A DNA stretch of 64,000 bases from an uncultured bacterium. GTDB lineage: Bacteria > Bacillota_I > Bacilli_A > RFN20 > CAG-826. Positions within the stretch are counted from its first letter, which is position 1; the number at the start of each line of letters is the position of its first letter. The notes under the pieces were generated by a model, which did no database searches, was not told the DNA's origin, and was given only the letters and a program-made list of their open reading frames with translations. The stretch spans positions 163,884 through 227,883 of the forward strand of contig CASFSS010000018.1 of the NCBI GenBank assembly GCA_949297445.1. Direction: 5' to 3'. The translations under genes were made by a program, and so were the position numbers. Positions 1,429 to 44,697 of this stretch are shown piece after piece.

Positions 1429-1449
1429 TTGGTTGAAAGAGGTCATATT

Positions 1450-4179: not shown

Positions 4180-4218
4180 GTGTGGTAAAATATCCCCGAG
4201 TGATGAAATGAGTTTTTG

Positions 4219-7501: not shown

Positions 7502-7519
7502 TACGGAGGACATTAACAA

Positions 7520-15471: not shown

Positions 15472-16360
15472 AAACGTTAAAGAGGCTTTGAAAAATGGAT
15501 TACCTATTGTTGCTTTAGAATCGACCATCATATCGCACGGCATGCCCTATCCAAAAAATGTTGAGACAGCTTTACTTGTTGAAGAAGCAATTAAGAAAAA
15601 TGGCGCCGTTCCCGCGACAATTGGCATCATTGACGGCGAGCCAATTGTCGGCATGAGCAAAGAAGAAATTGAACAATTTGGAAAAAGAAAAGGAATCAAA
15701 AAAGTTTCGCGTCGAGACTTGCCGATTGTAATTGCCAAAAAAGAATGGGGAGCGACCACGGTTGCGACAACGATGATATTGGCTAAAAAAGCTGGCATTG
15801 AAGTTTTTGTTACCGGCGGTGTTGGGGGCGCTCATCGAAAAGCTCAACAAACATTTGACATATCGGCTGATTTGGAAGAATTAGCGCAGACTGAAGTCAC
15901 CGTCGTTTGTGCCGGCGTAAAGGCAATTTTAGATCTCCCGTTGACGTTAGAAATTTTGGAAACAAAAGGAGTCACTGTTTTATCGTATCGTAGTGATGAA
16001 TTTGCGGATTTTTATACGCGTCATTCCGGAATTAAGATGGAAAATATCGTTAATACAGCAGAGGAAATTGCCGATGTGATAAAAGCGAAAAGAGCATTTG
16101 ACTTAAAGGGAGGCATTTTAGTTGCCAATCCTATTCCCGAAAAATACGCTATGGATGATAACGTTATTAATGGAGCAATCGAAACAGCTCTTGACGAAGC
16201 GGAAAAACAACATGTTTCTGGAAAGGACGTAACTCCGTTTTTGTTAAAAACCATTGTAGATATTACAAAGGGCGAGTCCCTTGAAGCCAATATTCATTTA
16301 GTGATTAATAACGCAATTTTAGGAGCAGCAATAGCTAAATCATTAGCGGAAAGAAAATGA
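15458..16360 (+). CDS. psuG: Pseudouridine-5'-phosphate glycosidase
   Basis: ALESTIISHGMPYPKN and the following region match the PsuG/YeiN family. Confidence 0.8.
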   Translation: MRIAENVKEALKNGLPIVALESTIISHGMPYPKNVETALLVEEAIKKNGAVPATIGIIDGEPIVGMSKEEIEQFGKRKGIKKVSRRDLPIVIAKKEWGATTVATTMILAKKAGIEVFVTGGVGGAHRKAQQTFDISADLEELAQTEVTVVCAGVKAILDLPLTLEILETKGVTVLSYRSDEFADFYTRHSGIKMENIVNTAEEIADVIKAKRAFDLKGGILVANPIPEKYAMDDNVINGAIETALDEAEKQHVSGKDVTPFLLKTIVDITKGESLEANIHLVINNAILGAAIAKSLAERK

Positions 16361-16890
16361 AAAAAGAAGCAATTTTCAAAAAAGGATTAAAAGAATTAAT
16401 TGAAACATCTTCTTTAGAAGATATTACGGTTGTTTCTTTGTGCGATTATGTCAAATCTAATCGGCAGACATTTTATTATCACTTCCGCGATTTATATGAT
16501 CTTTTAGCGGCTATCATGCTACGCGAACAAATTAATTACCCGTTTAGCGATTTGGCATTTGAAAATATGCATGATGCAATTGTGAAATATATAAATGATA
16601 ATTATCGATTTTTGTCCGAAGTTAAAAAGTCATACGCTGGTGATTTAATTGATAATTTTATCTATTCGTTCATCTATGATAAACTTCAACAATTCTATAA
16701 ATTATATCCGCCGAAAACTGTAAGCAAAGACTACCTATTATCAATGGAGCGTTGTCTTTCAAATGTTCTTTCCCTCGAATATTCTTATCACATTACCGCT
16801 TTAAGAAAAGAAGGCCCACAAAAAATTAAAAAAAGACTAAAAAGAATATGGGATTACTTTACCAAAACTTATTTACAAACTGAATTATGA
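16357..16890 (+). CDS. TetR/AcrR-family transcriptional regulator
   Basis: N-terminal HTH (ITVVSLCDYVKSNRQTFYYHFRDLYDL) with a helical C-terminal domain. It overlaps both neighbours. Confidence 0.6.
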   Translation: MKKEAIFKKGLKELIETSSLEDITVVSLCDYVKSNRQTFYYHFRDLYDLLAAIMLREQINYPFSDLAFENMHDAIVKYINDNYRFLSEVKKSYAGDLIDNFIYSFIYDKLQQFYKLYPPKTVSKDYLLSMERCLSNVLSLEYSYHITALRKEGPQKIKKRLKRIWDYFTKTYLQTEL

Positions 16891-18062
16891 AAGATTTTAC
16901 TTTTTGTTCACCGACAACTATCTATTTTGGACAAAACAAAGAAAATGAGGTTGGCCAAATTATTTTTAACCACGGGATAAGAAAAATTTTAATTGTATAT
17001 GGTTCTAATCGAATCGAGAAATCCGGCCTATTATCTCGGGTAATGTCATCTCTTGATAAATATCAAATTGCCTATAAAACATTAAGTGGCGTAACGCCGA
17101 ATCCCGATGTCAAAAAAGTTAAAGAAGGATTATCAATTATAAAAGCGTGGCCAGTAGAACTAGTTTTGGCTATTGGCGGTGGCTCAGTTATTGATGTCGC
17201 TAAATCTATTGCTTGCAATTTTTATTATTGTGGCGATCCATACGATTTCAATATGAAAGTTGCCTCACCAACTAGAGCGTTAAAAATCGGCGTCATTCTC
17301 ACTTTGGCGGCCTCAGGGAGCGAACTATCGGATTCTTGTGTGATTTCTAATATAGAAACATCGATGAAAGGTGGGTATAATTCGCCATTTAATCGACCAC
17401 TATTTGCCATCATGAATCCTGAATTAACATTGACCGCTTCGACAAAAGACGTCATGGCCGGAGTTGTCGATATAATTTCTCACTCGCTAGAGCGCTATTT
17501 TGCTAGAGGCAAAAAATATGAATTTTCTGAAAATATTGCTTTAGCAATAATAAAAAATACTGTCGAGATAGGAAATGAAATTATTGTAAATCCTAATAAT
17601 TATGAAGCGCGAGCATCGCTCATGTTGAATGGTGCTTTTTCGCATAATGGATTAACCGGTTTAGGCAAAGAATATACTTTTCCGATTCATGCTTTAGAGC
17701 ATCAATTAAGCGCCATCAATCCAAATTTAGCACACGGAGTTGGTTTGGCCATTTTGATACCGGCGTGGATGGAATATGTGTATAACTATGATGTACCAAA
17801 ATTTGCTAGATTTAGTAAAGAGATATTTGATATAAAGGTTGAAAATAGCGTCGAAAATGCTAGAATGGGTATTGTTCGTTTAAAGCAATTCTTTAAGGAA
17901 CTTGGTCTACCAACGACGCTTCGAGAATGTGGCTTTGACGAAAAACAGATCTCCTCAATTAGTGAACGTTTGACAAATGGTGGTACACGTGTGGTTGGCC
18001 AAAACTCTGTCAAACCACTAAACAAAAAAGATATTGCTGCGATTTTCGCAATATGCTTTTAA
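16887..18062 (+). CDS. Iron-containing (group III) alcohol dehydrogenase
   Basis: Fe-ADH fold with the GGGSVIDVAK glycine motif and metal-binding His residues (HALEH...H). Confidence 0.85.
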   Translation: MKDFTFCSPTTIYFGQNKENEVGQIIFNHGIRKILIVYGSNRIEKSGLLSRVMSSLDKYQIAYKTLSGVTPNPDVKKVKEGLSIIKAWPVELVLAIGGGSVIDVAKSIACNFYYCGDPYDFNMKVASPTRALKIGVILTLAASGSELSDSCVISNIETSMKGGYNSPFNRPLFAIMNPELTLTASTKDVMAGVVDIISHSLERYFARGKKYEFSENIALAIIKNTVEIGNEIIVNPNNYEARASLMLNGAFSHNGLTGLGKEYTFPIHALEHQLSAINPNLAHGVGLAILIPAWMEYVYNYDVPKFARFSKEIFDIKVENSVENARMGIVRLKQFFKELGLPTTLRECGFDEKQISSISERLTNGGTRVVGQNSVKPLNKKDIAAIFAICF

Positions 18063-25074: not shown

Positions 25075-25146
25075 AGAAACAAAATGAAAGCGTTATCAGT
25101 AAAAAAATATTGATATAGTTAATTGCCCGTGTTATCTTATATATGG

Positions 25147-25163
25147 TCAATCAATATGATTGA
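25147..25163. promoter_or_regulatory. Perfect palindrome TCAATCA-ATA-TGATTGA just upstream of the rex RBS (candidate operator)
   Basis: 7-bp inverted arms with a 3-bp spacer, 16 bp upstream of the rex ATG and downstream of a TTGCCC/TATATA promoter-like pair. Confidence 0.35.
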
Positions 25164-25178
25164 GCGATGGAGGTAAAA

Positions 25179-25823
25179 ATGGACGAAAATGTTTCCAACC
25201 GACAACTTGAACGATATCCAATGTATCTTAGTCATTTATTGATGCTAAGTGAAGCCGGTGTCGTCAATATTAGCGCACCGACAATTGCGGCGGCATTGCA
25301 CCTTAACGTCGAGCAGGTTCGTAAAGATTTACAAGCTGTTTCTAGCAGCGAGGGCAAGCCAAAATTTGGTCGCAATGTTGAAGAGTTAATTGCCGATTTA
25401 AAGAAATTTTTAGGCTATAACGAAACGAACAAAGCAATCGTTGTTGGAGTCGGTCATCTGGGACAAGCATTTTTGAATTATTCCGGCTTTACTCGCTATG
25501 GATTAGATATTGTTATGGGTTTTGATATTGATCCTTTGATTGTCGGTAGCGAAATAAACGGGAAACCGATTTATTCACTCGATGAAATTGGTAAATATTT
25601 AGCCGATAGTGATATAAAAATTGCCGTTTTAACAACGCCACAAGGTGTGGCACAAGAAGTCAGCGATGTGCTGACAAAAAATGGCATCCGTGGAATTTGG
25701 AACTTTACTCCTATTCATCTCTCTCATCCTCTTAATGTGGTGGTTGAAGACATGAATTTAGCGAGTTCGCTTGCCAAATTTTCCCATCGTTTGCAGATTT
25801 TATTAAAAAAGGAGAAAAGCTAA
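25179..25823 (+). CDS. rex: Redox-sensing transcriptional repressor Rex
   Basis: N-terminal winged helix plus the Rossmann NADH-binding motif VVGVGHLGQAF. ATG at 25179 follows a GGAGG RBS. Confidence 0.85.
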   Translation: MDENVSNRQLERYPMYLSHLLMLSEAGVVNISAPTIAAALHLNVEQVRKDLQAVSSSEGKPKFGRNVEELIADLKKFLGYNETNKAIVVGVGHLGQAFLNYSGFTRYGLDIVMGFDIDPLIVGSEINGKPIYSLDEIGKYLADSDIKIAVLTTPQGVAQEVSDVLTKNGIRGIWNFTPIHLSHPLNVVVEDMNLASSLAKFSHRLQILLKKEKS

Positions 25824-28441
25824 TGCAAGGACAAATAGTTTCCATTGAAGCTTTTGAAGAAGTTGACAAGCTCGTAAGAAATGGGCAAAAAGCACTCAAT
25901 GAATTTTTGAAACTAAATCAAGAACAAGTCGACTATATTGTTGCAAAGTGTTCGGTTGCTGGTCTTGATCACCATGGGACTTTAGCCGCAATGGCAATTG
26001 AAGAAACGAAACGTGGTGTTTTTGAAGACAAAGCAACAAAAAACTTATTTGCGTGCGAATATGTTGTCAACAATATGCGTCACTTAAAAACAGTTGGTAT
26101 CATTAAAGATGATCCGGTAACTGGTATCACCGAGATTGCTGACCCAATGGGTGTTATCTGTGGAATTACGCCAGTCACCAATCCAACTAGTACCGTTATT
26201 TTTAAATGCTTAATTGCTTTAAAAACACGTAACCCAATTATTTTTTCATTCCATCCTAGCGCCCATGAATGTTCAAAGCGGGCCGCCCAAATTATGTTAG
26301 ATACAGCGGTGGCTGCTGGGGCACCAAAAAATTGTATTCAGTGGATTGAACAAATATCGATGGATGCGACGACCGCATTGATGAATCATACCGGTGTAGC
26401 GACAATTTTGGCTACTGGCGGAAATGCGATGGTTAAAGCTGCTTATAGTTGTGGCAAACCAGCAATGGGTGTCGGTGCTGGTAATGTTCCCGCCTACATT
26501 CATAAAAGCGCCAATGTTGAACAAGCAGTCAATGATATAGTTTCATCGAAATCGTTTGATAATGGTATGGTTTGTGCTTCTGAACAGGCAGCGATTATCG
26601 ACGAAGAAGTTTTTGATGAAGCCATCAATTTGTTTAAACGTTTCAAAGTTTATTTTGTTACACCAGCTGAAAAAACAAAGTTGGAAAAATATATGTTTGG
26701 TTACGCAAAAGGAGACCCAAACATTGAGTTATCACGCCTCAATCCAAAGATTGTTGGTATGTCAGCTCATTTTATTGCTGAACAAGCTGGTTTCTCGGTT
26801 CCTGAAGATACCTCTATTTTGGCTGTTCATTGTAAAACAGTCGGCATCGAAGAACCTTTGTCGCGAGAAAAATTGTCTCCTGTATTAGCAATTTATAAAG
26901 TTAAAGATGAAAAAGAAGGCTTTGACGTGGCCAGCAAATGTGTCGAATTCAATGGATTAGGACATAGTGCTGCTATCCACTGTAAAGAGCAATCTTTGGC
27001 CGACGCTTATGGCGAGCGCTGCAAAGCGATGCGAATTATTTGGAATTCGCCATCTACCTTTGGTGGCATTGGAAATATATATAATTCGTTCTTGCCAAGT
27101 ATGACATTAGGCTGTGGTAGTTATGGAAGAAACTCCATTGGCGGTAATGTCAGTGCAATCAATTTGTTAAATATTAAAAAGGTCGGTAAAAGGAGAAATA
27201 CTATGCAATGGTTTAAAGTACCACGCAAGATATATTTTGAACGCAACTCGATTCAATATTTACAATCTTGCCGCGACATCGAAAAAGTTTTTATTGTCAC
27301 CGATCGCTCGATGGTTGATTTCGGCTATGTTTCTCGTGTGACCGATCAATTAAATATGCGTCGTAACAAAGTTCAAATTCAATTGTTCTGTGATGTTGAG
27401 CCAGATCCAGATATTGAAACCGTTTTGCGCGGTGTTAAATTGATGGACGCATTCCGTCCCGATACAATTATTGCTATCGGCGGTGGTTCCCCAATGGATG
27501 CCGCAAAAGGAATGTGGTTATTCTATGAACATCCAGAAGTTAATTTTGATGATTTGAAACAAAAGTTTATGGATATTCGTAAACGAGCTTTCCGCTATCC
27601 TGAACTTGGTTTAAAATCTAAACTCATTTGTATACCGACAACATCTGGAACTGGTTCAGAAGTTACCCCGTTTGCGGTTATTTCCGACAAAAAGAACAAC
27701 AAGAAGTATCCGTTAACGGATTATTCATTAACACCAACAATTGCTATTGTTGACCCAGAGTTTGTTACCACTTTGCCAGCGCGCCCAACTGCTATTACTG
27801 GTATGGACGTCTTGACGCACGCGATTGAAGCGTATGTGTCTGTTTTGGCAAACGATTACACGGATGGATTAGCCCTTCAAGCAATCAAATTGGTTTTTGA
27901 ATATTTGCCTCGCGCGGTTAAAGATGGTCCACACGATTTAGAAGCACGCGAAAAAATGCATAATGCAGCAACGATTGCCGGTATGGCTTTTGCCAATGCG
28001 TTCTTAGGCATGGCTCACTCGTTAGCCCATAAAATTGGTGGTGAATTCCATACTGTTCATGGTTATACATGTTCCATCGTGTTGCCATATGTTATTCGTT
28101 ATAATGGCACTACCCCAACAAAATTATCTGTTTGGCCAAAATATAACGTTTATAAAGCAGATAAGAAGTATCAAGAAATTGCTAAATTGCTCGGCCTACC
28201 TGCCGCTACTCCCGCCGAAGGAGTAGAATCGCTAGCTAAAGCTGTTAAAAATTTAGCAATCGAAATTGGTCTTGAAACAAGCTTTGAGAAACTCGGTATC
28301 GATGAAAAAGAATGGAATTCTAAAATTGATACTGTGGCGGTCTTAGCTTATGAAGATCAATGTTCACCAGCAAATCCAAGAGTTCCTCTTGTTAAGGATA
28401 TGAAGGAAATTTTAAGAAAGGCTTATAAAGGTATTGATTAA
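25823..28441 (+). CDS. adhE: Bifunctional acetaldehyde-CoA/alcohol dehydrogenase
   Basis: 872 aa. The N-terminal ALDH domain has the catalytic Cys (VCASEQ) and the C-terminal domain is an Fe-ADH with GGGSPMDAAK. Start overlaps the rex stop. Confidence 0.95.
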   Translation: MQGQIVSIEAFEEVDKLVRNGQKALNEFLKLNQEQVDYIVAKCSVAGLDHHGTLAAMAIEETKRGVFEDKATKNLFACEYVVNNMRHLKTVGIIKDDPVTGITEIADPMGVICGITPVTNPTSTVIFKCLIALKTRNPIIFSFHPSAHECSKRAAQIMLDTAVAAGAPKNCIQWIEQISMDATTALMNHTGVATILATGGNAMVKAAYSCGKPAMGVGAGNVPAYIHKSANVEQAVNDIVSSKSFDNGMVCASEQAAIIDEEVFDEAINLFKRFKVYFVTPAEKTKLEKYMFGYAKGDPNIELSRLNPKIVGMSAHFIAEQAGFSVPEDTSILAVHCKTVGIEEPLSREKLSPVLAIYKVKDEKEGFDVASKCVEFNGLGHSAAIHCKEQSLADAYGERCKAMRIIWNSPSTFGGIGNIYNSFLPSMTLGCGSYGRNSIGGNVSAINLLNIKKVGKRRNTMQWFKVPRKIYFERNSIQYLQSCRDIEKVFIVTDRSMVDFGYVSRVTDQLNMRRNKVQIQLFCDVEPDPDIETVLRGVKLMDAFRPDTIIAIGGGSPMDAAKGMWLFYEHPEVNFDDLKQKFMDIRKRAFRYPELGLKSKLICIPTTSGTGSEVTPFAVISDKKNNKKYPLTDYSLTPTIAIVDPEFVTTLPARPTAITGMDVLTHAIEAYVSVLANDYTDGLALQAIKLVFEYLPRAVKDGPHDLEAREKMHNAATIAGMAFANAFLGMAHSLAHKIGGEFHTVHGYTCSIVLPYVIRYNGTTPTKLSVWPKYNVYKADKKYQEIAKLLGLPAATPAEGVESLAKAVKNLAIEIGLETSFEKLGIDEKEWNSKIDTVAVLAYEDQCSPANPRVPLVKDMKEILRKAYKGID

Positions 28442-28692
28442 TGACAGTATTAGTTTGTGTTGGTAGTTCTTGCCATTTAAAAGGAAGTTACGACATTATT
28501 GAATTGATGAAGGCGGCAATTGCCGCCCATCATCTCGAAGATAAAGTAACTCTCAAAGCAACATTTTGCCTCGGCAAATGTGCAATCAGCGGTGTCTGCA
28601 TTAAAGTTGATGATGATATCATCACTGGTGTGACAAAAAACAATTTTGAAGAAGTGTTCAAAACAAATATTCTCGACAAATTAAATTATTAA
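28441..28692 (+). CDS. Thioredoxin-like [2Fe-2S] ferredoxin (NuoE/HndA-like small protein)
   Basis: 83 aa with Cys pattern CVGSSCH...CLGKCAISGVC. It is translationally coupled to adhE (ATTAATG). Confidence 0.65.
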   Translation: MTVLVCVGSSCHLKGSYDIIELMKAAIAAHHLEDKVTLKATFCLGKCAISGVCIKVDDDIITGVTKNNFEEVFKTNILDKLNY

Positions 28693-28713
28693 TTTATTTA
28701 TAGGAGCCGTTTT

Positions 28714-30405
28714 ATGCCATACGCTTTAGAAAGTCGTAAAAATGATTGCCGCAACTGTTATAAATGTATTCGCGGTTGTCCAGTAAAATCGATATCATTT
28801 GGTGATAACAATCAAGCATCTATTATTCATGATGATTGCATTTTATGTGGTCATTGTTTTCTACTTTGTCCACAAGAATGTAAAGAAATTCGTGACGATA
28901 TTTCTAAAGCGAAAGCTCTTATTAAAAGCGGCAAAAAAGTTATTGTATCGCTCGCGCCAAGCTATGTTTCTGGCTACATTAATTGCTCTTTTGAAAACAT
29001 AAAAAAATCATTGCTTCAATTGGGCTTTTATGATGTCGAAGAAACAGCCATTGGCGCGACGATTGTCAAACAAATTTATGATGAAATGGTGGCAAAGGGT
29101 GATCGTGATGTTATTATTTCCACATGCTGCCATAGTGTAAATCTTTTGGTACAAAAGCATTATCCCGATTTGATACCTTGCTTAGCGGATGTTTTATCCC
29201 CTATGCTCGCTCATGCTCGTGATATTAAACTTCGCTACCCGGATTCATACGTCGTATTTATCGGACCTTGCATTGCTAAAAAAGACGAAGCTGACCAAGA
29301 CAAAAATCATTATGTCGATTGTGTCTTAACATACTTAGAACTTGATCGTTGGTTAAAAGAAGACGATATCGTTTTAGAAGAAGACGGCGGAACCAAAATG
29401 CTTGAAAAATCTAAAGCGCGCCTTTTTCCAACGACAGGTGGAATTTTAAACACAATGGAAAAGAATAGTCCCGACTATCAATATTTAGCTGTCGATGGGA
29501 CATTTAATGTCATGGCAGCTTTAGAAGATATTCGAGAAGGCAAGGTTCATAAATGTTTCATCGAAATGTCATCCTGCCCCGGCTCATGTATCAATGGTCC
29601 GGCAGTGGCCACAAGTGCTCGCTCGTTGCTAGCGGGTTATATAAAGGTACACAATGCTTCTGGAAAGCAAGATTTTTCCGTAACAAGCACAAAATATGAT
29701 GATATTGCGGTGAAATTTAGATCAACAGGCGTCTCGAAAGCGCGCCCAAGCGACCTTGACATTCAAAAAGAATTAGTCGATATGGGCAAATATACTAAAA
29801 AGGATGAACTTAATTGTGGTTCTTGTGGATATGACACATGTCGCGAAAAGGCAATTGCCATTTTGGAAGGCAAAGCCATCAAGGAAATGTGTCTACCATT
29901 CTTGATGCAAAAGGCACAAAGTTTCTCCGATAAAGTTATTTTTAATACCCCAAATGGTTTGATGGCTCTTGATGAGAATTTAAATATTCAATTAATTAAT
30001 CCGGCAATGCGACAAATTGTTGGCGTTGCCCATGCTCGTGAGGTAATTGGCAAGAATGTTTCGACCATTCTAGACCCTTCAATTTTTGCCATGGCTCTTA
30101 CAGGCGAAAAAATTCACGCTCGCCGTGATTATTTAAGTGAATACGATAAATACGTCGAAGAAACCGTTGTTTTTGACGAAAAATATCGCGTCTTAATTTC
30201 GATTTTTAGAGACGTAACTCAAGAGCAAAAGAAAATTTTGAAAAAAGAAGAAACGGTCAATAAATCAGTTGATATTACCAATGCTGTTATTGAAAAAAAT
30301 ATGCGTGTCGTTCAGGAAATAGCCTCGTTATTAGGCGAAAGTGCCGCCGAAACAAAAATCGCTCTTTCTTCACTCAAGGATACACTAAAAAATGATGGTG
30401 AGTAA
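28714..30405 (+). CDS. hydS: Putative sensory [FeFe]-hydrogenase with C-terminal PAS domain (HydS / HfsB-like, group C)
   Basis: Two N-terminal 4Fe-4S motifs (CRNCYKCIRGCP, CILCGHCFLLCP). H-cluster motifs are STCCHS (L1 variant), IGPCIAKKDE (L2) and EMSSCPGSCINGP (L3 with Met replaced by Ser, no GGGQP). An extra CGSCGYDTC motif and a PAS-like C-terminal ~130 aa follow. Confidence 0.8.
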   Translation: MPYALESRKNDCRNCYKCIRGCPVKSISFGDNNQASIIHDDCILCGHCFLLCPQECKEIRDDISKAKALIKSGKKVIVSLAPSYVSGYINCSFENIKKSLLQLGFYDVEETAIGATIVKQIYDEMVAKGDRDVIISTCCHSVNLLVQKHYPDLIPCLADVLSPMLAHARDIKLRYPDSYVVFIGPCIAKKDEADQDKNHYVDCVLTYLELDRWLKEDDIVLEEDGGTKMLEKSKARLFPTTGGILNTMEKNSPDYQYLAVDGTFNVMAALEDIREGKVHKCFIEMSSCPGSCINGPAVATSARSLLAGYIKVHNASGKQDFSVTSTKYDDIAVKFRSTGVSKARPSDLDIQKELVDMGKYTKKDELNCGSCGYDTCREKAIAILEGKAIKEMCLPFLMQKAQSFSDKVIFNTPNGLMALDENLNIQLINPAMRQIVGVAHAREVIGKNVSTILDPSIFAMALTGEKIHARRDYLSEYDKYVEETVVFDEKYRVLISIFRDVTQEQKKILKKEETVNKSVDITNAVIEKNMRVVQEIASLLGESAAETKIALSSLKDTLKNDGE

Positions 30406-31573
30406 TCTTATCACGGAAGTTGGCTATCTATCAATCAATCACGACGGTGAAGAACTTTGTGGTGATCATGTTCAACTAATAAACAATAAACAATCGCGGA
30501 CAACCACTCTCGTTTTAGCCGACGGGTTAGGTAGCGGAGTCAAAGCAAATATTTTGAGTACTTTGACGAGCGAAATTCTTTCGACGATGATTGCGAACAA
30601 TTTGCCAATCGATGAGTGTGTTAAAACAATCATGGAAACGTTACCAGTTTGTAAAGTTCGTGGCGTTGCTTATTCCACTTTCACCATTATTCATATATTA
30701 GATTCGCGACAAGCAATAATTTATAATTACGATAATCCACAACCATTTTTAATTAGAAATGGTAAATATCGTCCTCTTGACTGGAGTTCACAAATCATCG
30801 ATGAAAAAACCATCTCTTTTGCCTCTATTTATTTAGTTGAGGGAGACACTTTCTTCTTAATGTCCGATGGCGTCATTCACGCCGGCATTGGAGCGACTTT
30901 GAATTTTGGTTGGGATATTATGAGTGTGATTGACTATGCCGAAGGGCTATTCGACGAAAAATATTCAGCCAAATCGCTCGCGACTTATTTAATTAGTCAC
31001 GTAAATGATTTATACAATGGTCATCCTGGGGATGATGCGACTGTGGCCGCCATCAAAATTCGTCCGCGCAAGCAGGTAAATTTAATGATTGGTCCAGCCT
31101 CGAACCGCGAAGATGATGAAAAAATGCTCTCGCTATTTTTCGCTAAAGAAGGCAAACACATCGTTTGCGGTGGCACTACTTCTCATGTGGTTGCCAATTA
31201 CTTAAAAAAAGAACTCGAATTCCCCCTTGATTATATTGATAAAGAAATACCGCCGACGGCCAAAATTGAGGGTGTGGATTTAGTGACAGAAGGTGTCATC
31301 ACAATCAATAAAGTTTTGCAATACGCCGACAATGTATTCAAGGACAATAGTGATTATTTTACTTGGTCGTTTAAGCAGGATGGAGCCTCACAAATTGCTC
31401 GCCTTTTATTTGAAGAAGCCACCGACATTAACTTTTTTGTCGGTTGTGCGATTAACCCTGCCCACCAACAAGATGGCATTCCAATCAATTTCAATACAAA
31501 AATGCAATTGGTGGATGAATTATCTAAAGCCTTAAAAAAGATGAACAAAAGCATTAAAGTAAGTTATTTTTAA
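30392..31573 (+). CDS. PP2C/SpoIIE-type serine phosphatase with uncharacterised C-terminal domain (HfsC-like)
   Basis: LVLADGLGSGVKANILS and FLMSDGV are PP2C metal-binding Asp motifs. Start overlaps the hydS stop, and the C-terminal ~160 aa has no recognisable motif. Confidence 0.7.
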   Translation: MMVSNLITEVGYLSINHDGEELCGDHVQLINNKQSRTTTLVLADGLGSGVKANILSTLTSEILSTMIANNLPIDECVKTIMETLPVCKVRGVAYSTFTIIHILDSRQAIIYNYDNPQPFLIRNGKYRPLDWSSQIIDEKTISFASIYLVEGDTFFLMSDGVIHAGIGATLNFGWDIMSVIDYAEGLFDEKYSAKSLATYLISHVNDLYNGHPGDDATVAAIKIRPRKQVNLMIGPASNREDDEKMLSLFFAKEGKHIVCGGTTSHVVANYLKKELEFPLDYIDKEIPPTAKIEGVDLVTEGVITINKVLQYADNVFKDNSDYFTWSFKQDGASQIARLLFEEATDINFFVGCAINPAHQQDGIPINFNTKMQLVDELSKALKKMNKSIKVSYF

Positions 31574-31586
31574 TGGAGACAAATTT

Positions 31587-33047
31587 ATGGTAAGCGAAGA
31601 AATTAAAGCAAAATTTGACACGCGTGTACAAGAATTAAAATATCGCGTGCTAAAAGAGGTTGCCCGCTCGTATTTTAATGGTACTTTAATTCAAGATTAT
31701 TCAACTATTCCTGAAAAAATCTCCCCCGGTCCGAAAGCGACGATGCGTTGCTGCATCTATAAAGAGCGCGCCATCGTTTTAGAAAGAATGAAATTAGCTA
31801 CCGGTGGCGATCGAACAAGAAATAATGTCGTACAGGTTTTAAAAATAGCTTGTGATGAATGCCCGTTAGGTGGTTATGAGGTAACTCGCAACTGTCGTGG
31901 TTGTATCGCCCATCGCTGCGAAAAAGCATGCTTTAAAAAAGCCATTACTTTTGATCCGGTTACTCACGCGGCTATCATTGACAAAACAAAATGTGTAAAT
32001 TGCGGGATGTGCGCTAAAGCGTGCCAATATAATGCAATCAATAATTATCGACGTCCTTGCGAAGTTGCCTGCAAGATGAACGCCATTAGTCACGATGAAA
32101 ATTTCGCGGCAGAAATTGATGACGAAAAGTGCATTCAATGTGGACAATGTGTCTATCAATGTCCATTTGGAGCAATTATGGATGTTTCTTATATTACCGA
32201 TGTTATTGACATGCTTAAAGACAGCGATTTTTCAAAAAAATATCATGTTTATGCCGTCATCGCCCCTTCCATTTCTTCACAGTTTAAATATGCGACGCTT
32301 GGTCAAATTATCAAAGCGATTGAAGTGTTAGGTTTTCATAATGTAGTCGAAGCCGCTTTAGGCGCCGATATGGTCGCTTATAAGGAAGCCAAAGAGCTGT
32401 CGGAAAAAGGTTTCTTATTATCGAGTTGTTGTCCGTCTTTTGTATCTTTTGTTGAGAAAAAATTTCCTAAGTTAAAAGAAAGCATTTCAGAGAATTTATC
32501 GCCGATGGCGACAATTGCTCAATATATTAAATCCGTTGACCCAACTGCTAAAGTTGTTTTTATTGGTCCTTGTGTAGCTAAAAAACAAGAGATCAAACGT
32601 CCGAAAGTTGGCGAATATATTGATAGTGTTTTGACCTTTGAGGAATTACAAGCCTTGATTGATGCTAGAGAAATCGATGCCTCTAAATTAGAAGAGTCTA
32701 GTTTGGATAACGCTTCATATTTTGGTCGCATTTTCGCTAGAAGTGGTGGCTTGCATGACGCCGTTAATGAAGCACTTAAAGAACAACATCTTGACTTTAA
32801 TTTGAATGCCGGTGTCGGCGACGGTTTTGACTTATGTCGTCAATTATTATTAAAATGCAATACAGACACTAAACCATTTAATTTTATCGAGGGTATGATT
32901 TGTAGTAACGGCTGCATTGGTGGCCCATGCTGCTTGACGCATGAAGTACGCGATAAAAGTGAAGTGGATAAATATGGCAACGAAGCCAAAGAAAAGACCA
33001 TCGAAGACGCTATCAAATATGTCTATAACGTCACTTCCACTCATTGA
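31587..33047 (+). CDS. hydA: [FeFe]-hydrogenase catalytic subunit (monomeric, ferredoxin-domain N-terminus)
   Basis: H-cluster motifs SSCCPSF (L1), IGPCVAKKQE (L2) and EGMICSNGCIGGPCC (L3). N-terminal Cys clusters are CVNCGMCAKAC and CIQCGQCVYQCP plus extra Cys. Confidence 0.85.
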   Translation: MVSEEIKAKFDTRVQELKYRVLKEVARSYFNGTLIQDYSTIPEKISPGPKATMRCCIYKERAIVLERMKLATGGDRTRNNVVQVLKIACDECPLGGYEVTRNCRGCIAHRCEKACFKKAITFDPVTHAAIIDKTKCVNCGMCAKACQYNAINNYRRPCEVACKMNAISHDENFAAEIDDEKCIQCGQCVYQCPFGAIMDVSYITDVIDMLKDSDFSKKYHVYAVIAPSISSQFKYATLGQIIKAIEVLGFHNVVEAALGADMVAYKEAKELSEKGFLLSSCCPSFVSFVEKKFPKLKESISENLSPMATIAQYIKSVDPTAKVVFIGPCVAKKQEIKRPKVGEYIDSVLTFEELQALIDAREIDASKLEESSLDNASYFGRIFARSGGLHDAVNEALKEQHLDFNLNAGVGDGFDLCRQLLLKCNTDTKPFNFIEGMICSNGCIGGPCCLTHEVRDKSEVDKYGNEAKEKTIEDAIKYVYNVTSTH

Positions 33048-34204
33048 TTTAAGTAATAAAAGTATAAATACATTTTTTGATATCTAGAGAAAGATTCTAT
33101 TGTATAGTTGATTGTTCCATCAGGATTTTCGCTCGCGCTAATATCGATATTATCTTGATACGAAGAGGTGCCATCATTACCAAAAACATACAAATATAGA
33201 TTGTTGAAAAAATTGCCCACTCGCTCGAATAAATTGTGTGACTCCCAAAAATAATAGCGATAGGCATTGTCTTTTATTATTTTAGGATTTAAGTTTGCGA
33301 CAAACTCTTGATAACATTCATAACCGCCATACGCTAAAGGGAAAATATTTAGACTACTAAAAGTCCACATGAAAGCGGAATATTTTAAAAATGGATCATC
33401 GCTATTTAATAAAACATAAAATGCCAACAAATTGGCATCTTCTTCGCGCATCACCCCTTTTATATGCGCGATTTCGTGGGCGGCCACAAAAGGAAGTTCG
33501 CTTGATGTCATTTTATAATTTAAATTTGCCTCCGATAGTGGAGCAAAAGAAACGCCGGTGATTCCTAATTCTACATAAAGGTATTGAAGTAAGAAAAACT
33601 TTTTAGTGTTCGGCGTGAACTCGCTAAAATAGTCGGAATCTAATTTCGCATATTCTTCTTTTAAGACGGCATTTAATTCATCTAAGGAATAAGGAGCAAT
33701 TAAAGCACCCGAGTCTTCATCAAATGTCAATTGTTCAGCTGTCTTATTGTATTCATCTAAAAAATAGTTCGCGATATCCATGTATTCATTTTCTGAAACC
33801 GTTCCTTCATATGAAGGAATATCTAATGGATAACGGTTATATTGCATACCAGCCGTCATCGCGTATAATAGGCTCGTAATTGCAACAAAATAAGCTGGTA
33901 TGAGCCAAAATTTAGAAGAAAATCTGAGACCTACTTTATACAAGTGTCTTATAAGAAACACGAGCCAAACGATAACGCCAATTACTAAAAGGTATATTAC
34001 AATTTCGAAAATAGAAAAAGGCAAGGCGGAGGTTAGAGTGCCAATAGCTACTTGATAATATCTAGCAACTGTTCTTGACCAATATTCAGCGATGGTAGAG
34101 TTGTATTTTAAACAAGAAACAACTATTAAAATAGCGATTAAAAAAATTAATATGCTTAACGCTACCCAAAAATGCTTTTTATATCTCACCATTTTTAATT
34201 TCAA
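33041..34204 (-). CDS. DUF3810-like membrane protein with HExxH zinc-metalloprotease motif
   Basis: N-terminal TM helices followed by an extracellular domain carrying VAAHEIAHIKG. Its stop codon overlaps the hydA stop, so the two genes converge by 7 nt. Confidence 0.55.
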   Translation of the reverse strand: MKLKMVRYKKHFWVALSILIFLIAILIVVSCLKYNSTIAEYWSRTVARYYQVAIGTLTSALPFSIFEIVIYLLVIGVIVWLVFLIRHLYKVGLRFSSKFWLIPAYFVAITSLLYAMTAGMQYNRYPLDIPSYEGTVSENEYMDIANYFLDEYNKTAEQLTFDEDSGALIAPYSLDELNAVLKEEYAKLDSDYFSEFTPNTKKFFLLQYLYVELGITGVSFAPLSEANLNYKMTSSELPFVAAHEIAHIKGVMREEDANLLAFYVLLNSDDPFLKYSAFMWTFSSLNIFPLAYGGYECYQEFVANLNPKIIKDNAYRYYFWESHNLFERVGNFFNNLYLYVFGNDGTSSYQDNIDISASENPDGTINYTIESFSRYQKMYLYFYYLNQ

Positions 34205-36969: not shown

Positions 36970-39585
36970 ATGAAAAAGTCGCAACGTAAAACACCATATT
37001 TTGATGCCTTAAAAAAATATTTGTCAGTCGAAGTTTCTCCTTTTGATGTGCCAGGACATCATATGGGTAATGTCCCGAACAAATTAAAAACATTAGTTGG
37101 TGAAAATGTTTTTCGTGCGGACGTCAACGCTCCTATCGGCATGGACAATTTAGCCGCTCCTCGCGGCCCGCTTTTAGAGGCACAACGATTGATGGCGGAT
37201 TTTTGTGGAGCGAGTCGGGCTTTTTTCTTAATTAACGGCACAACTTCGGGCATCATTGCGATGATAATGACTGCTTGTCGAGCTAACGACCGAATTATTT
37301 TGCCACGCAACGTTCATAAATCAATTATTAATGCTTTGGTTTTAAGTGGAGCCATTCCGACTTATATTATGCCCCGCTTAGATTCTGAATTAGAGATTGC
37401 CAATCAACCATCGGTAGATGATTACGTTAGGGCAATGAATCGTTATCCGTCCGCTAAAGCTATTTTTGTTATTAATCCAACTTATTTTGGTTCCGTTATT
37501 GATTTGAAGCAATTGGTAGAAATTGCTCACGCACGAGGAATCGCGGTTTTGGTAGATGAAGCGCATGGCGCCCATTATTATTTCAACAAAAATGGTCCGC
37601 TATCAGCTATGGAATGTGGAGCGGATATGTCTAGTGTTTCCTTCCATAAGACAGGTGGCAGTTTGACTCAATCGAGCGTGTTATTATTAAACGAGGGTAT
37701 TTTCTCGCGCCGAGAAATACAAAAAACATTAAATATATTAAATACAACTTCACCTAATACATTGTTGCTTGCTAGTTTAGACACCGCTCGTGAATATGTG
37801 GCTATGCATGGCCAAGCAAACATGAATCGCGTTTTTGAATTAAGTGATTTTGCGAGAGAACAAATTGATAAAATTAAAGGCTTTAAAACAGTTGGCAAAG
37901 ACCATTTTGTAAAATACGGTTCTTACGATTATGACAAAACAAAACTAGTAATCGCGTTAGAACACCTCGACATAAACGGTTTTGAATTATATAAGTTTTT
38001 AAAAGTCGATTATAACATTCAAGTGGAACTAGCCGAGACCTATGTCATTATGGCCATTTTAGCAATCGGTACAAAGAAAAAGCATATTTTAGCTTTAATA
38101 AAAGCGTTAAAAGATATTTCTAGAAAACATTATAAAAAAAGCAATGTTCGCGATGAACATTCGTTTGGAATTGATTTCCCATATATGCTTATGCGACCTC
38201 GTTTGGCCTATCACGCCGATGGGAAAAAAGTGCCATTAGAGAAAGCCGTTAATGAAATTGCTAAAGAGCAATTGATGATTTATCCACCGGGAATACCGCT
38301 AATTGTTCCTGGCGAGGTTTTCACTAAGGAATTAGTGGATCGCATTAAAACATATAAGAAGATGAACGGAACTATATTGAGCGATTATAAAAATGCTGAC
38401 AATGTCAGCGTGATTGACCGTGACAAATGGCAACAATTCCATTTGTTTAAAAACAAACTCAATGACTATTTGATTAAAAAGATTACCACGCCACGAGGCG
38501 ATGATTATGTGATGCCTTTTGAAGGCGAGGCGCACGAAGGAACAATTATTTTACTTCCCTTCCGAAAAGACACCTGGCGAGAAAATGCTAAGCTGGCTCA
38601 AAACGCTTATCGACAAGTTATTATGGCCATCGCTAAATATGAAAAAGTATATGTCGGCATTCATCCCTCAATTTATAATTCCTTGATTGATAGCTATAAA
38701 GATGTTGACAACATCGTTCCTATCAAAATTCGTTATAACGACGCTTGGGCGCGCGACAATTGTCCTATTTTTGTCATCAACAAGGAGAACAAGATGCGTG
38801 CGGTCGATTTTCGCTTTAATGCATGGGGCGGCGAAGTAGATGGTTTATATAACAATTACAAAGAAGACGATTTGATCGCTAAGGCAATGGCAAAATATTT
38901 TGGTGTAGAAAGATATTATTTAGAAAACTTTGTCTTAGAAGGTGGCAGCATCCATGTCGATGGCAAAGGTACTTGTTTGGTGACGGAGGCATGCCTATTG
39001 TCAAACGGTCGTAACCCGCATTTAAACAAATTGCAAATAGAAGAAACCTTAAAAATTTATCTAAATGTTTCTAAAGTTATTTGGTTAAAACACGGTATCT
39101 ATTTAGACGAGACAAACGAGCATGTAGATAATATCGCTTGCTTTGTTCGTCCTGGCGTAATTGCTCTAGCCTGGACAAACGATAAAAATGATCCACAATA
39201 TGAATATTCCCTCTCTTGTTACAACATTTTGAAAAAAGAGCATGATGCGGAAGGCAATCCTTTTAAAATAGTAAAAATTATTAACCCCGAGCCAATATAT
39301 ACGAACAAAGAAGACACGAAAGGAATTCAAGCTGGTCGCTACTCGGCTGTGCCGCGCTTAGTAGGCTCACGCTTAGCGGCTAGTTACATAAATTTCTATC
39401 AAGGTGAAAAGTTTGTCATTATGCCTGGTTTTGGTGTAAAAGAAGATGGTCCGGCCTTAAAAAGAATGAAACGACTATTTCCTGAAAAGGATGTCATCCA
39501 AATCAATTCGCGTGAAATTTTATTAGGCGGTGGAAACATTCATTGCATCACTATGCAAGTGCCTAAAACTCATAAAGGAGAATAA
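36970..39585 (+). CDS. Fused arginine decarboxylase (Orn/Lys/Arg decarboxylase, PLP fold-I, Bacillus SpeA type) and agmatine deiminase
   Basis: Residues 1 to ~490 match Bacillus-type SpeA (FDVPGHHMG...PRNVHKS..SFHKTGGSL). Residues ~510-871 match agmatine deiminase (MPFEGEAHEGT...WARDNCPIFV...GGGNIHCITMQ with catalytic Cys). It is one uninterrupted ORF of 871 aa. Confidence 0.85.
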   Translation: MKKSQRKTPYFDALKKYLSVEVSPFDVPGHHMGNVPNKLKTLVGENVFRADVNAPIGMDNLAAPRGPLLEAQRLMADFCGASRAFFLINGTTSGIIAMIMTACRANDRIILPRNVHKSIINALVLSGAIPTYIMPRLDSELEIANQPSVDDYVRAMNRYPSAKAIFVINPTYFGSVIDLKQLVEIAHARGIAVLVDEAHGAHYYFNKNGPLSAMECGADMSSVSFHKTGGSLTQSSVLLLNEGIFSRREIQKTLNILNTTSPNTLLLASLDTAREYVAMHGQANMNRVFELSDFAREQIDKIKGFKTVGKDHFVKYGSYDYDKTKLVIALEHLDINGFELYKFLKVDYNIQVELAETYVIMAILAIGTKKKHILALIKALKDISRKHYKKSNVRDEHSFGIDFPYMLMRPRLAYHADGKKVPLEKAVNEIAKEQLMIYPPGIPLIVPGEVFTKELVDRIKTYKKMNGTILSDYKNADNVSVIDRDKWQQFHLFKNKLNDYLIKKITTPRGDDYVMPFEGEAHEGTIILLPFRKDTWRENAKLAQNAYRQVIMAIAKYEKVYVGIHPSIYNSLIDSYKDVDNIVPIKIRYNDAWARDNCPIFVINKENKMRAVDFRFNAWGGEVDGLYNNYKEDDLIAKAMAKYFGVERYYLENFVLEGGSIHVDGKGTCLVTEACLLSNGRNPHLNKLQIEETLKIYLNVSKVIWLKHGIYLDETNEHVDNIACFVRPGVIALAWTNDKNDPQYEYSLSCYNILKKEHDAEGNPFKIVKIINPEPIYTNKEDTKGIQAGRYSAVPRLVGSRLAASYINFYQGEKFVIMPGFGVKEDGPALKRMKRLFPEKDVIQINSREILLGGGNIHCITMQVPKTHKGE

Positions 39586-39587
39586 GT

Positions 39588-40454
39588 ATGTCAGTTAAAG
39601 TTGCGATTACACAAATGAGTTGTTCAGCCAATATTCAAGCCAATATCCACAAAGCAATTTCGCTCGTTGAAAAGGCAGCGAAAGAGGGCGCAAACATTAT
39701 TTTGTTACAAGAGTTATTTTCTTCTTTATATTTTTGTCAAGTTGAAGACTATAATAATTTCTCTTTAGCGGAAAACAAAAATGATTCAGCTTTAATAAAA
39801 ACTTTTCAAGAAGTAGCCAAAAAATATAATGTTGTTTTGCCAATTTCCTTTTTTGAAAAAAGCGGAGCTAATTATTTTAATTCCTTAGTTATGATAGATG
39901 CCGATGGAACCAATTTAGGTTTATATCGAAAGATGCATATTCCTACGGGGCAATGCTACGAAGAAAAGTTTTATTTTTCTCCTGGTGATACCGGCTATAA
40001 GATTTTTAAAACTAAATTCGGTAAAATTGGAGTTGGCATTTGCTGGGACCAATGGTTTCCCGAAGTGGCTAGAATTCTCGCTTTAAAAGGCGCGGAATTG
40101 CTTGTCTATCCGACCGCTATCGGCAGTGAACCAGTGTTGGTTAAAGATTCGATGATTCATTGGCGAAACACCATGTGTGGTCATGCTGCCGCTAATATCA
40201 TTCCTCTTTTAGCCTCTAATCGGGTTGGTGTAGAAAGTGTCGCTGGTTCAACCATGACTTTTGGTGGCTATTCTTTTATTGCCAATCAATATGGCGAAGT
40301 TGTGAAAGAATTGTCGAGAGTCGAAGAAGGGTATGCCATATACGAATTTGATTTAGATAGCATCGATAAAGATCGTATTTATTGGGGAGTATTTCGAGAT
40401 AGGCGAATCGATAGTTATTCACCTCTTCTAGAGTATGGAAACGAAGACGAATAA
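39588..40454 (+). CDS. aguB: N-carbamoylputrescine amidohydrolase (nitrilase superfamily)
   Basis: CN-hydrolase catalytic triad context (E in ILLQELF, K in RKMHIP, C in GVGICWDQWFPE). It lies immediately downstream of the deiminase fusion. Confidence 0.85.
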   Translation: MSVKVAITQMSCSANIQANIHKAISLVEKAAKEGANIILLQELFSSLYFCQVEDYNNFSLAENKNDSALIKTFQEVAKKYNVVLPISFFEKSGANYFNSLVMIDADGTNLGLYRKMHIPTGQCYEEKFYFSPGDTGYKIFKTKFGKIGVGICWDQWFPEVARILALKGAELLVYPTAIGSEPVLVKDSMIHWRNTMCGHAAANIIPLLASNRVGVESVAGSTMTFGGYSFIANQYGEVVKELSRVEEGYAIYEFDLDSIDKDRIYWGVFRDRRIDSYSPLLEYGNEDE

Positions 40455-43857: not shown

Positions 43858-43868
43858 GGTATCATTTA

Positions 43869-44348
43869 ATGGCTGAAAAGAAAGAAAAGGAAAAAATAAC
43901 CACTCGTCTTAAGAAGAAAGTACAAGCGATTAGTGGAAAAAAGGAAGAGTTAGAGTCAGCGCTCGCTCCCTCTTTTGAAGATAGCCATCACATATCACCT
44001 TTAAAATTGTTTGTCATCATTGTTCCTTATGGTCAAGCTGGCGCAATTATTAAGCGATTAGAATCGATGGAGGCCTCTTCTTCTTTTATTATTTCTGCAC
44101 AAGGCACAGGTTCAAAAGATATCTATGATGTAATCGGTCTTAGCGATACTAAAAAACAAGTGATTTTATCGGTTCTCAAAGAAGAAAATGTTCCTGAGTT
44201 TAAACGTTTATTAGAAGAGCGTTTTTCAATTTCTAGGGCAGCAAAAGGAATTGCTTTTTCAATTAAAATAACCTCTTTAGTGGGTGTTACCATCTATAAA
44301 TTTTTATCAAATACGCAAGTGGTGAGGGAGAAAAAGAAAAATGGTTGA
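43869..44348 (+). CDS. PII (GlnB)-like small regulatory protein, paralog 1, with N-terminal Lys-rich extension
   Basis: ATG at 43869 follows a GAGGT RBS. The C-terminal ferredoxin-like PII fold region has a GIAFS motif. It is coupled to the DUF1538 gene. Confidence 0.5.
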   Translation: MAEKKEKEKITTRLKKKVQAISGKKEELESALAPSFEDSHHISPLKLFVIIVPYGQAGAIIKRLESMEASSSFIISAQGTGSKDIYDVIGLSDTKKQVILSVLKEENVPEFKRLLEERFSISRAAKGIAFSIKITSLVGVTIYKFLSNTQVVREKKKNG

Positions 44349-44697
44349 AACAAAAGATGAAATTAAAGCAACTATAAATAACGAAAACGCTGAATTGGTT
44401 TTGGTTATTGTCAACAACGGATTTGCGGATTTAGTGATGGAGGCCGCCAAGCGTAAAGGCGCGCGAGGGGGAACAATTTTACACGCTAGAGGTACTGGAA
44501 ACAAAGAGATGGAAAAGTTTTTTGGTATCTCAATTTCTCCTGAAAAAGAAATTGTTTTAATCTTAGTGAAAAAAGATCAAAAAGATGAAATTCTTAGCGA
44601 AATATATAAAGATGCTGGATTAGATACTAACGGGCAAGGAATTGCCTTTTCTTTGCCGGTGAGCGATGTCGTTGGCGCCACATTAGGCGATAATTAA
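44341..44697 (+). CDS. PII (GlnB)-like small regulatory protein, paralog 2
   Basis: 118 aa. LVLVIVNNG...KRKGARGGTILHARGTG...GIAFS resembles the PII-like proteins that pair with DUF1538. Start overlaps the paralog 1 stop. Confidence 0.55.
   Translation: MVETKDEIKATINNENAELVLVIVNNGFADLVMEAAKRKGARGGTILHARGTGNKEMEKFFGISISPEKEIVLILVKKDQKDEILSEIYKDAGLDTNGQGIAFSLPVSDVVGATLGDN

Follow-up and report, generated by a model that had tools for sequence, protein, structure and literature searches.

A probable rex-adhE-hfsA-hydS-PP2C-hydA operon of the hfs type in an uncultured bacterium of the RFN20 lineage, and a candidate operator for its Rex subfamily

The hfsABCD operon of Thermoanaerobacterium encodes a small protein, a hydrogenase with a PAS domain, a serine phosphatase, and a HydA2-like hydrogenase, with no kinase in the operon (PMC5707799, PMC11837493). 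When hfsA or hfsB was deleted, adhE transcripts went up two- to three-fold and the yield of ethanol 1.8-fold, a phenotype for which hfsC and hfsD were required (PMC5707799, PMC11837493), and deletion of hfsB also raised hydrogenase activity together with adhE expression (PMC5707799). In Ruminococcus albus, an eight-gene cluster encoding a ferredoxin-only hydrogenase, AdhE, and a sensory hydrogenase was down 111-fold when a partner organism consumed H2 (PMC6776011). Finally, Cthe_0422-0432 of Clostridium thermocellum act as one regulated block (PMC3848806), in which Cthe_0425-0426 have been placed among the dimeric sensory hydrogenases, C D(M2f) (PMC3561251). The present work concerns a six-gene cluster of this kind, rex-adhE-hfsA-hydS-PP2C-hydA, in a 64,000-nucleotide stretch of DNA (hereafter, the window) from an uncultured bacterium (GTDB lineage Bacteria; Bacillota_I; Bacilli_A; RFN20; CAG-826), corresponding to positions 163,884 to 227,883 of contig CASFSS010000018.1 in GenBank assembly GCA_949297445.1.

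The cluster is not new; it is a further member of a documented system that has been studied by genetics and transcriptomics. Positions 25095-33047 are best read as a single operon of the described type, working through the mechanism proposed below, and we would put the probability of this reading at roughly 0.75. In terms of gene content, the operon is hfsABCD preceded by rex-adhE, or equally the R. albus/C. thermocellum cluster minus an aminoglycoside phosphotransferase (APH)-like kinase and minus one [2Fe-2S] gene. The chief interest of the locus lies in two things that emerged from its relatives, namely a Rex subfamily paired with a non-canonical palindrome (the "X box") and the optional nature of the kinase across the family.

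Gene order and distribution of the cluster

Six co-directional open reading frames (ORFs) fill positions 25179-33047 of the window (Table 1), and domain and profile searches agree with the identities that an earlier, sequence-only reading had given to all six genes. The start of rex was taken as the ATG at 25179, 5 nt past a GGAGG, with 25167 as the alternative ORF start. Both the rex/adhE and the adhE/fdx junctions consist of a TAATG in which stop and start overlap by 1 nt, while the start of the PP2C gene lies within the end of hydS, giving an overlap of 14 nt. The two remaining junctions are gaps of 13 nt (PP2C-hydA) and 21 nt (fdx-hydS), the latter being the widest of the five, and a purine-rich, Shine-Dalgarno-like run is found ahead of each of the six starts. 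Upstream, the block is bounded by metG, which ends at 25074; on the other side, its limit is a DUF3810 gene (33041-34204, minus strand) that is convergent and overlaps the hydA stop. No convincing terminator was found by a sequence scan of the six-gene block, and a consensus scan yielded 21 promoter-like sites inside it versus 28.3 in shuffled sequences, i.e., fewer than expected. On account of the tight junctions, the low number of internal promoter-like sites, and the sole upstream promoter-like site with its conserved operator, the six genes probably form a single transcript; the sequence-only reading had proposed as much from the overlapping or short junctions, which the coordinates confirm.

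Table 1. Coordinates of the operon's genes and upstream features in the window.
Feature	Position	Strand	Description
Candidate operator (X box)	25095-25114	.	ATCAGTAAAAAAATATTGAT; 7-N6-7 inverted repeat of the type ATCRRTA-N6-TAYYGAT
Promoter-like site	25110-25138	+	-35 TTGATA, 17-nt spacer, TG-extended -10 TATCTT (TG-n-TATCTT); consensus match
Palindrome	25147-25163	+	Perfect, TCAATCA-ATA-TGATTGA (7-3-7); presumed 5′ untranslated region (UTR), 5 nt before GGAGG
rex	25179-25823	+	Rex-family NAD(H)-sensing repressor, subfamily NF003994; non-canonical wing VRKDLQAVSSSEGKPKFGRN
adhE	25823-28441	+	Bifunctional acetaldehyde-CoA/alcohol dehydrogenase, 872 aa; NF010378, 1387.8 bits; Aldedh + Fe-ADH + ADH_Fe_C
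fdx (hfsA-like [2Fe-2S])	28441-28692	+	Small thioredoxin-like protein, 83 aa; PF01257, E 1.2e-8
hydS/hfsB	28714-30405	+	Group C (M2f-type) putative sensory [FeFe] hydrogenase, 563 aa
PP2C gene (hfsC)	30392-31573	+	PP2C/SpoIIE-type Ser/Thr phosphatase, residues 6-223, plus C-terminal domain, residues 224-393
hydA/hfsD	31587-33047	+	Monomeric group B1 [FeFe] hydrogenase, 486 aa; TIGR04105 (FeFe_hydrog_B1), 544.3 bits (cutoff 450)

The same gene order is found in many unrelated genomes, and therefore the arrangement is not a product of chance. A genome scan detected the PP2C protein (roughly 392 aa) in at least 564 species, including members of the Oscillospirales, Christensenellales, Lachnospirales, Erysipelotrichaceae, Anaeroplasmatales, and Selenomonadales, as well as Desulfitobacterium and a Treponema bin; with its C-terminal domain included, the full-length relatives of the protein number in the thousands, with identities of 60-68%. 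For the comparison of loci, 80 were kept as a sample of these species. In 73 of them, i.e., wherever the contig allows, hydS lies directly before the PP2C gene and usually overlaps its start, and a group B hydA follows the phosphatase in about 65. In almost all loci, hydS has one or two small fdx genes ahead of it. The fdx-hydS-PP2C-hydA core is present in nearly all of the 80, and about 30 have adhE and/or rex upstream. The identical six-gene layout was encountered in loci L001-L004 and in a sister species (L185/L186; 84% PP2C identity). Two of these loci, L001 and L003, come from records named Gemmiger formicilis and Slackia isoflavoniconvertens; they have the same coordinates and near-identical sequences, show the greatest similarity to the low-GC cluster of the window, and are probably mis-binned contigs. 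The HydS protein itself occurs in identical form on 22 contigs of ENA metagenome assemblies, the longest of which is 371,934 bp.

The most conspicuous variable among the relatives is a kinase. In 27 clusters, a 250-aa gene between adhE and fdx encodes an APH/protein-kinase-like protein (HGDFNPSNI...IDW; PF01636, E 1.7e-15) that corresponds to Cthe_0424 of C. thermocellum (PMC3848806) and to the Ser/Thr kinase of R. albus (PMC5707799). Several relatives with eight genes (L020, L023, L033, L041, and L078) possess this kinase plus two small fdx genes, and the kinase-bearing form is the R. albus/C. thermocellum type (PMC5707799, PMC3848806). In the window, adhE runs directly into fdx with no kinase gene between them. 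A tblastn search of the window with two kinase queries returned nothing even at E 10, no kinase Pfam match was obtained for the ORFs scanned or among the neighbours, and neither HATPase_c, STAS, nor RsbV/RsbW-type partners, as would be expected for RsbU-RsbV-RsbW partner switching, were found in the 64 kb. The earlier statement that the window holds no kinase, histidine-kinase-like ATPase, or anti-sigma partner is thus borne out. Its description of the cluster as a streamlined "minimal version" is not, since the APH-like kinase is present in 28 of the 80 loci and absent from 52, and the six-gene layout recurs elsewhere; the kinase-less state is the commoner one and not a streamlined exception. 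Similarly, the suggestion that discovery of a cognate kinase would turn the locus into a conventional hfs cluster has the matter inverted, as the published hfsABCD comprises four genes without a kinase (PMC11837493).

A Rex subfamily and its candidate operator

The window's Rex matches NCBIfam model NF003994 with 232.8 bits (cutoff 130) and contains both a winged helix (PF06971, E 2.2e-11) and a Rossmann domain (PF02629, E 5.8e-22). It aligns over its full length to a solved Rex structure (3wg9, E 1e-33) and retains the GxGxxG motif and the FDIDP motif with its Asp; NADH-dependent release of the protein from DNA is a predicted property. What sets it apart is the wing. All of the cluster-linked Rex proteins carry VRKDL-x5-7-G(K/R)P(K/R)xG(Y/F/R) in place of the canonical FGxFGxxGyGY, and NF003994 was the top-scoring model for all eight Rex proteins tested, by a margin of 35-80 bits. 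Moreover, an altered wing of the GKPKxGY type was present in 17 of 17 Rex-like ORFs recovered in a wing-motif scan of the metagenome loci with tandem X boxes (see below). A conserved Ser or Thr in the altered wing was considered as a possible phosphosite and rejected, as hydroxyl residues occupy no fixed column across the subfamily.

The candidate operator of this Rex is the X box, a 20-bp palindrome, which in the window reads ATCAGTA-N6-TATTGAT and is the sole exact match to the pattern in 64 kb. Its right half overlaps the -35 hexamer of the only promoter-like site that a consensus scan found in the metG-rex spacer, and loci L001/L002 have TTGATA-17-TACAAT at the equivalent position. Across six aligned upstream regions, the left half of the box and an A-tract are invariant. 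In 24 related loci (L001, 4672-4691; L020, 3458-3477; L033, 3540-3559; L066, 3791-3824; L078, 3639-3658; L034, 2302-2321; and others), ATCRRTA-N6(7)-TAYYGAT sits 40-145 nt ahead of the cluster's first gene, often in tandem copies with a 14-bp phase, and exact matches number 21 in 1.38 Mb versus 0.2 in shuffled sequences. The two kinds of box are distributed very differently with respect to rex. The X box was found with 17 of 21 rex-containing clusters versus 7 of 47 without rex (Fisher p 2.6e-7), while a canonical Rex box with at most one mismatch precedes 10 clusters, none of which has rex (p 0.025), and was never found ahead of a rex-first cluster among the loci examined. Finally, an unbiased scan of metagenomes with the tandem X pattern gave a separate set of 80 loci, 22 of which have the boxes directly before rex, adh, or adhE.

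The X box is not confined to hydrogenase clusters of the window's type. It also precedes a monofunctional Fe-ADH gene (adhA-like), either by itself or followed by nfnAB-like genes (L017, 12625-16292; L034, 4012-7657; L060, 2521-3919; L078, 2166-3540), which suggests a small ethanol/redox regulon. On metagenome contigs, an X box and an altered-wing rex lead bifurcating-type hydrogenase operons (NuoE-like, NuoF-like, and HydA), and these operons then carry distant homologues of HydS and PP2C (L158, 4234-12317; L131, 2823-5935; L135, 6152-9309). The window contains a second, monofunctional Fe-containing alcohol dehydrogenase (16357-18062; 391 aa), located behind a small ORF without a Pfam match; neither an X box nor a Rex box was seen ahead of it.

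The sequence-only reading had pointed to an "upstream palindrome" as the target of Rex, a phrase that could apply to either of two sites, and the two have fared differently. The perfect palindrome at 25147-25163 was rejected as a Rex site, given that it lies downstream of the -10 hexamer and is absent from L001/L002/L004. It is a better fit to a small 5′-UTR hairpin (predicted at -8 kcal/mol, z -2.2), and only the sister species retains an inverted repeat there, TCAAC-ATA-GTTGA, with both arms altered (L185, about 2760-2775). The conserved site at 25095-25114 stands as the candidate, but it is non-canonical. In fact, the canonical Rex box TTGTTAA-N4-TTAACAA has no match with up to three mismatches in 25075-25178, nor does TTGTKAA-N4-TTMACAA have one with up to two mismatches in the spacer upstream of rex, and canonical matches across the window are at chance level (21 versus 18.1). 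Two canonical boxes with two mismatches each (25852 and 28242) were also discarded, as they lie inside adhE, are not conserved in L001-L004, and belong to a class whose counts are at chance.

Considered together, the comparative data suggest that the NF003994 Rex most likely recognises ATCRRTA-N6-TAYYGAT and not TTGTKAA-N4-TTMACAA. The simplest reading would be that of a hydrogenase/ethanol-linked Rex subfamily that has its own operator and autoregulates the operon. A full-text literature search for the X box with Rex terms gave nothing relevant, which does not prove that the site is undescribed.

HydS, the phosphatase, and HydA

The window's HydS begins with two N-terminal [4Fe-4S] sites (two Fer4 matches, residues 9-56), followed by the H-domain (Fe_hyd_lg_C, E 5.5e-48), a C-terminal four-Cys FeS motif (PF04060, residues 366-395, E 6.7e-9), a PAS domain (about residues 409-500), and a helix (503-561). 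Of the cysteines in the four-Cys motif, C368, C371, and C376 show no variation among 74 relatives. The PAS domain had been part of the sequence-only reading, and its fold was confirmed, with profile matches that are weak and just around threshold; its location after the C-terminal cluster is the property that separates group C from group D hydrogenases (PMC13104023). The STCCH, GPC, and CPGSC motifs align to C300, C355, C499, and C503 of CpI, and all four ligands of the H-cluster are therefore present. Four other positions depart from CpI (M353 to G, M497 to S, E279 to K, and S319 to A), each state being shared by 67-74 of about 74 relatives, and the changes at M353 and M497 are those discussed for sensory enzymes (PMC10055695). 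Binding of H2 by HydS and H2-dependent signalling are putative functions. The long helix behind the PAS domain (window 30220-30396) contains the most conserved stretch of the protein's C-terminal half, with the invariant sequence NMRxVQEIASLLGESAAETKxAL, and is a candidate output or docking helix.

The phosphatase encoded by the next gene matches SpoIIE (PF07228, E 2.4e-17) and has the PP2C fold with its metal-binding aspartates and an intact catalytic core. Its C-terminal domain (residues 224-393; window 31061-31573) is strongly conserved and Rossmann-like, has no family assignment, and is marked by an invariant HIVCGGTT loop and an NPAHQ motif. Besides its place behind this kind of PP2C, the domain was seen only in short proteins, which are about 165 aa long. 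It is conceivable that its pocket-like loop and the HydS helix stretch act as interfaces, and both are candidates for such a role.

The 83-aa product of fdx has four Cys in a CX4C...CX3C arrangement, and its match to the thioredoxin-like [2Fe-2S] family is to the C-terminal half. HydA displays the H-cluster motifs SSCCP, GPCVAKK, and EGMICSNGC, and its alignment shows that CpI residues C299, C300, C355, M497, C499, and C503 are all retained; the enzyme is presumably ferredoxin-linked and H2-evolving. Hydrogenases of group B are the chief fermentative H2 producers in the human gut (PMC12578642). No hydE, hydF, or hydG maturase genes were found within the 64-kb window.

Several other features of the window deserve brief mention. 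Positions 476-10096 comprise a chromosomal origin region with rnpA (minus strand), dnaA, dnaN, an S4-like gene, recF, gyrB, and gyrA; the hydrogenase operon is ~24 kb from dnaA, and the cumulative GC skew climbs across most of the window. At 36970-40454, an Orn/Lys/Arg decarboxylase and a PAD_porph (agmatine deiminase-like) domain are united in a single protein of 871 aa, with a CN_hydrolase gene behind it, an arrangement that looks like a fused arginine-to-putrescine route. Finally, a DUF1538 membrane protein, a small ORF, and a P-II-like protein form a conserved-looking trio at 42325-44697.

Proposed mechanism, alternatives, and known systems

By analogy with homologous systems, as H2 accumulates and NADH rises, the operon would supply the cell with two electron sinks: AdhE would use NADH to form ethanol, and the group B HydA would use reduced ferredoxin to form H2. 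Comparative genomics suggests that transcription would start from the promoter at 25110-25138, that the operon's own Rex would repress it at the X box over the -35 hexamer, and that Rex would leave the DNA as the NADH/NAD+ ratio rises. The weakest step comes next, in which HfsA/HydS would bind H2 at a slow H-cluster and its state would be relayed to the co-translated PP2C by way of the PAS domain and C-terminal helix. The phosphatase, in turn, would dephosphorylate a putative target and thereby tune the output of adhE and the hydrogenase.

A number of observations weigh against this account. The binding of Rex to the X box is correlative; seven of the loci with an X box lack any rex within 10 kb, the sister species has a degenerate right half-site, L040 has an X box plus a canonical box with two mismatches, and a LysR-type gene (HTH_1, E 5e-19) lies directly upstream of the regulatory region in 16 of the 80 loci. 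HydS keeps the proton-relay C299, and its H2 turnover may therefore exceed that of a pure sensor; in TamHydS, a related enzyme of group D, the C-terminal cluster is unresponsive to H2 (PMC13104023). A partner kinase is not encoded in the 64-kb window, and no phospho-substrate was identified. Lastly, the operon and promoter assignments are themselves predictions; metG is co-directional with rex and is followed by no terminator-like site, and read-through is possible.

The best-surviving alternative concerns the X box, which could be bound by a regulator other than Rex, e.g., a LysR-type protein, with Rex acting elsewhere or as a canonical Rex. The correlative nature of the Rex-X box pairing, the seven loci without a nearby rex, and the 16 upstream LysR-family genes (L012, 3454-4350; L020, 2471-3391; L034, 3015-3947; L066, 2857-3762; and 12 more) would all suit this explanation. 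However, the LysR gene accompanies both types of box, being found at canonical-box loci (L012, L014, L018, and L028) as well as at X-box loci, and the window and L001-L004 have the X box yet no LysR homologue within reach, none having been found anywhere in the window. Furthermore, the gene immediately after tandem X boxes in the metagenome scan is most often an altered-wing rex, and autoregulation from a site ahead of its own gene is the usual arrangement for Rex (PMC8457756). A non-Rex regulator of the X box is unlikely.

Somewhat less likely still is that HfsA, HydS, PP2C, and HydA constitute one multi-subunit catalytic hydrogenase, in which HydS would be a catalytic or electron-transfer subunit and the phosphatase would be an on/off switch for the enzyme. 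The hydrogenase identified as chiefly responsible for H2 evolution in T. saccharolyticum is hfs, and HfsABC was considered to be possibly active without HfsD (PMC11837493, PMC13277313); in the window, the genes are translationally coupled, and HydS has all of the H-cluster ligands. Because C299 is also retained in HydS, this explanation keeps some weight. Against it stand the four substitutions relative to CpI, which are those of low-activity sensory enzymes (PMC10055695), the signalling architecture formed by the PAS domain and conserved output helix, and the regulatory phenotype of the hfsB deletion (PMC5707799). In addition, HydS-PP2C pairs are joined to hydrogenases of unrelated types, such as the bifurcating hydCBA of L158 and Cthe_0428-0430.

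An extension of the preferred reading would make the NF003994 Rex the meeting point of the two signals, with NADH acting on its Rossmann domain and HydS-PP2C acting on Rex or on its hold on the operator, through a phosphatase that has no dedicated kinase. We regard this as improbable; if true, the signals from H2 and from redox state would converge on a single promoter. As for the possibility that the six genes are mere neighbours with independent promoters, and that rex-adhE is functionally separate from the hydrogenase genes, the weak promoter-like matches inside the block and the many relatives with an hfs core lacking adhE or rex are far outweighed by the two 1-nt and one 14-nt overlaps, a largest gap of 21 nt, internal promoter-like sites below those of shuffled sequences, and the co-regulation of the homologous R. 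albus and C. thermocellum blocks as units (PMC6776011, PMC3848806), making it very improbable indeed.

The choice of a fermenter between H2 plus acetate and ethanol bears on rumen methane, gut H2, and strains for cellulosic ethanol. To the problem of HydS signalling (PMC13104023), the window brings no new component, being one more copy of a cluster found in hundreds of Bacillota. A dedicated kinase is dispensable in most clusters, however, and models that require a cluster-encoded kinase/phosphatase pair are therefore not general. The cluster-attached rex, for its part, belongs to a subfamily of its own, and the non-canonical palindrome with which it is paired also stands before adhA-nfnAB and bifurcating hydrogenase operons. 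Should the predicted binding prove true, the pairing would define a second regulon code of Rex, one that serves hydrogen and ethanol metabolism.

Among known systems, the signalling half of the operon recalls RsbP of Bacillus subtilis, which combines PAS, coiled coil, and PP2C in one chain. Both pair a PP2C from the SpoIIE/RsbU branch with a PAS domain that leads into a long helix; unlike in RsbP, the PAS domain and helix of the window's module are on the hydrogenase chain, the PP2C is a separate co-translated protein, and RsbV/RsbW-type partners are lacking in the window. A closer counterpart of HydS is the characterised group C enzyme of Thermotoga maritima, TmHydS, which has the same order of two [4Fe-4S] sites, H-domain, C-terminal [4Fe-4S], and PAS, and which also has small residues (G and S) at the positions of CpI M353 and M497 (PMC10055695). 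The two differ at the position of C299, where TmHydS has an Ala and is thus without the proton-relay cysteine (PMC10055695), whereas the window's HydS and 67 of the 72 relatives with a residue there have a Cys.

The window's Rex is homologous over its full length to canonical Rex proteins (T. ethanolicus RSP, 3wg9; B. subtilis, 2vt2; C. thermocellum Clo1313_2471) and shares with them the winged helix, GxGxxG Rossmann domain, and FD(I)DP motif. Their wing is FGxFGxxGyGY and their site TTGTTAA-N4-TTAACAA (PMC8457756), whereas the window-type Rex has a wing of S-x-x-G-K-P-K-x-G-Y/R, one residue longer, and is associated with ATCRRTA-N6-TAYYGAT. In C. thermocellum, the canonical Rex_2471 binds the canonical box in DNA affinity purification sequencing (DAP-seq), an assay made with that protein and not with the adhE-linked copy (PMC8457756).

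At the level of the whole cluster, the kinship with hfs and R. albus clusters proposed in the sequence-only reading is upheld by gene order and published descriptions (PMC5707799, PMC11837493, PMC6776011). The four-gene core of T. saccharolyticum and T. thermosaccharolyticum, which has a genetic link to the expression of adhE and the yield of ethanol (PMC5707799, PMC11837493), has the window's order of small Fe-S protein, HydS, PP2C, and catalytic [FeFe] hydrogenase (PMC11837493), an orthology judged from published domain descriptions. In Thermoanaerobacterium, rex and adhE reside at another locus, whereas in the window both are at the front of the operon, directly upstream and in the same orientation, as in the R. 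albus/C. thermocellum type (PMC3848806, PMC6776011). The hydS-hydA2 cluster of R. albus 7 (Zheng et al. 2014, cited in PMC5707799; Greening et al. 2019, PMC6776011) shares with the window rex, adhE, the PAS-bearing group C hydrogenase, the Ser/Thr phosphatase, and the ferredoxin-only hydrogenase (PMC5707799, PMC6776011); it has eight genes, including a Ser/Thr kinase (PMC5707799), versus six genes, no kinase, and one fdx in the window. Finally, Cthe_0422-0430 of C. thermocellum have in common with the window the order of rex (a second copy in that organism), adhE, small protein, HydS (C D(M2f)), and SpoIIE (PMC3848806, PMC3561251). The C. thermocellum cluster includes the kinase Cthe_0424, annotated as "aminoglycoside phosphotransferase" (PMC3848806), which the window is without, and its downstream hydrogenase is trimeric and bifurcating, whereas that of the window is a monomeric enzyme of group B.

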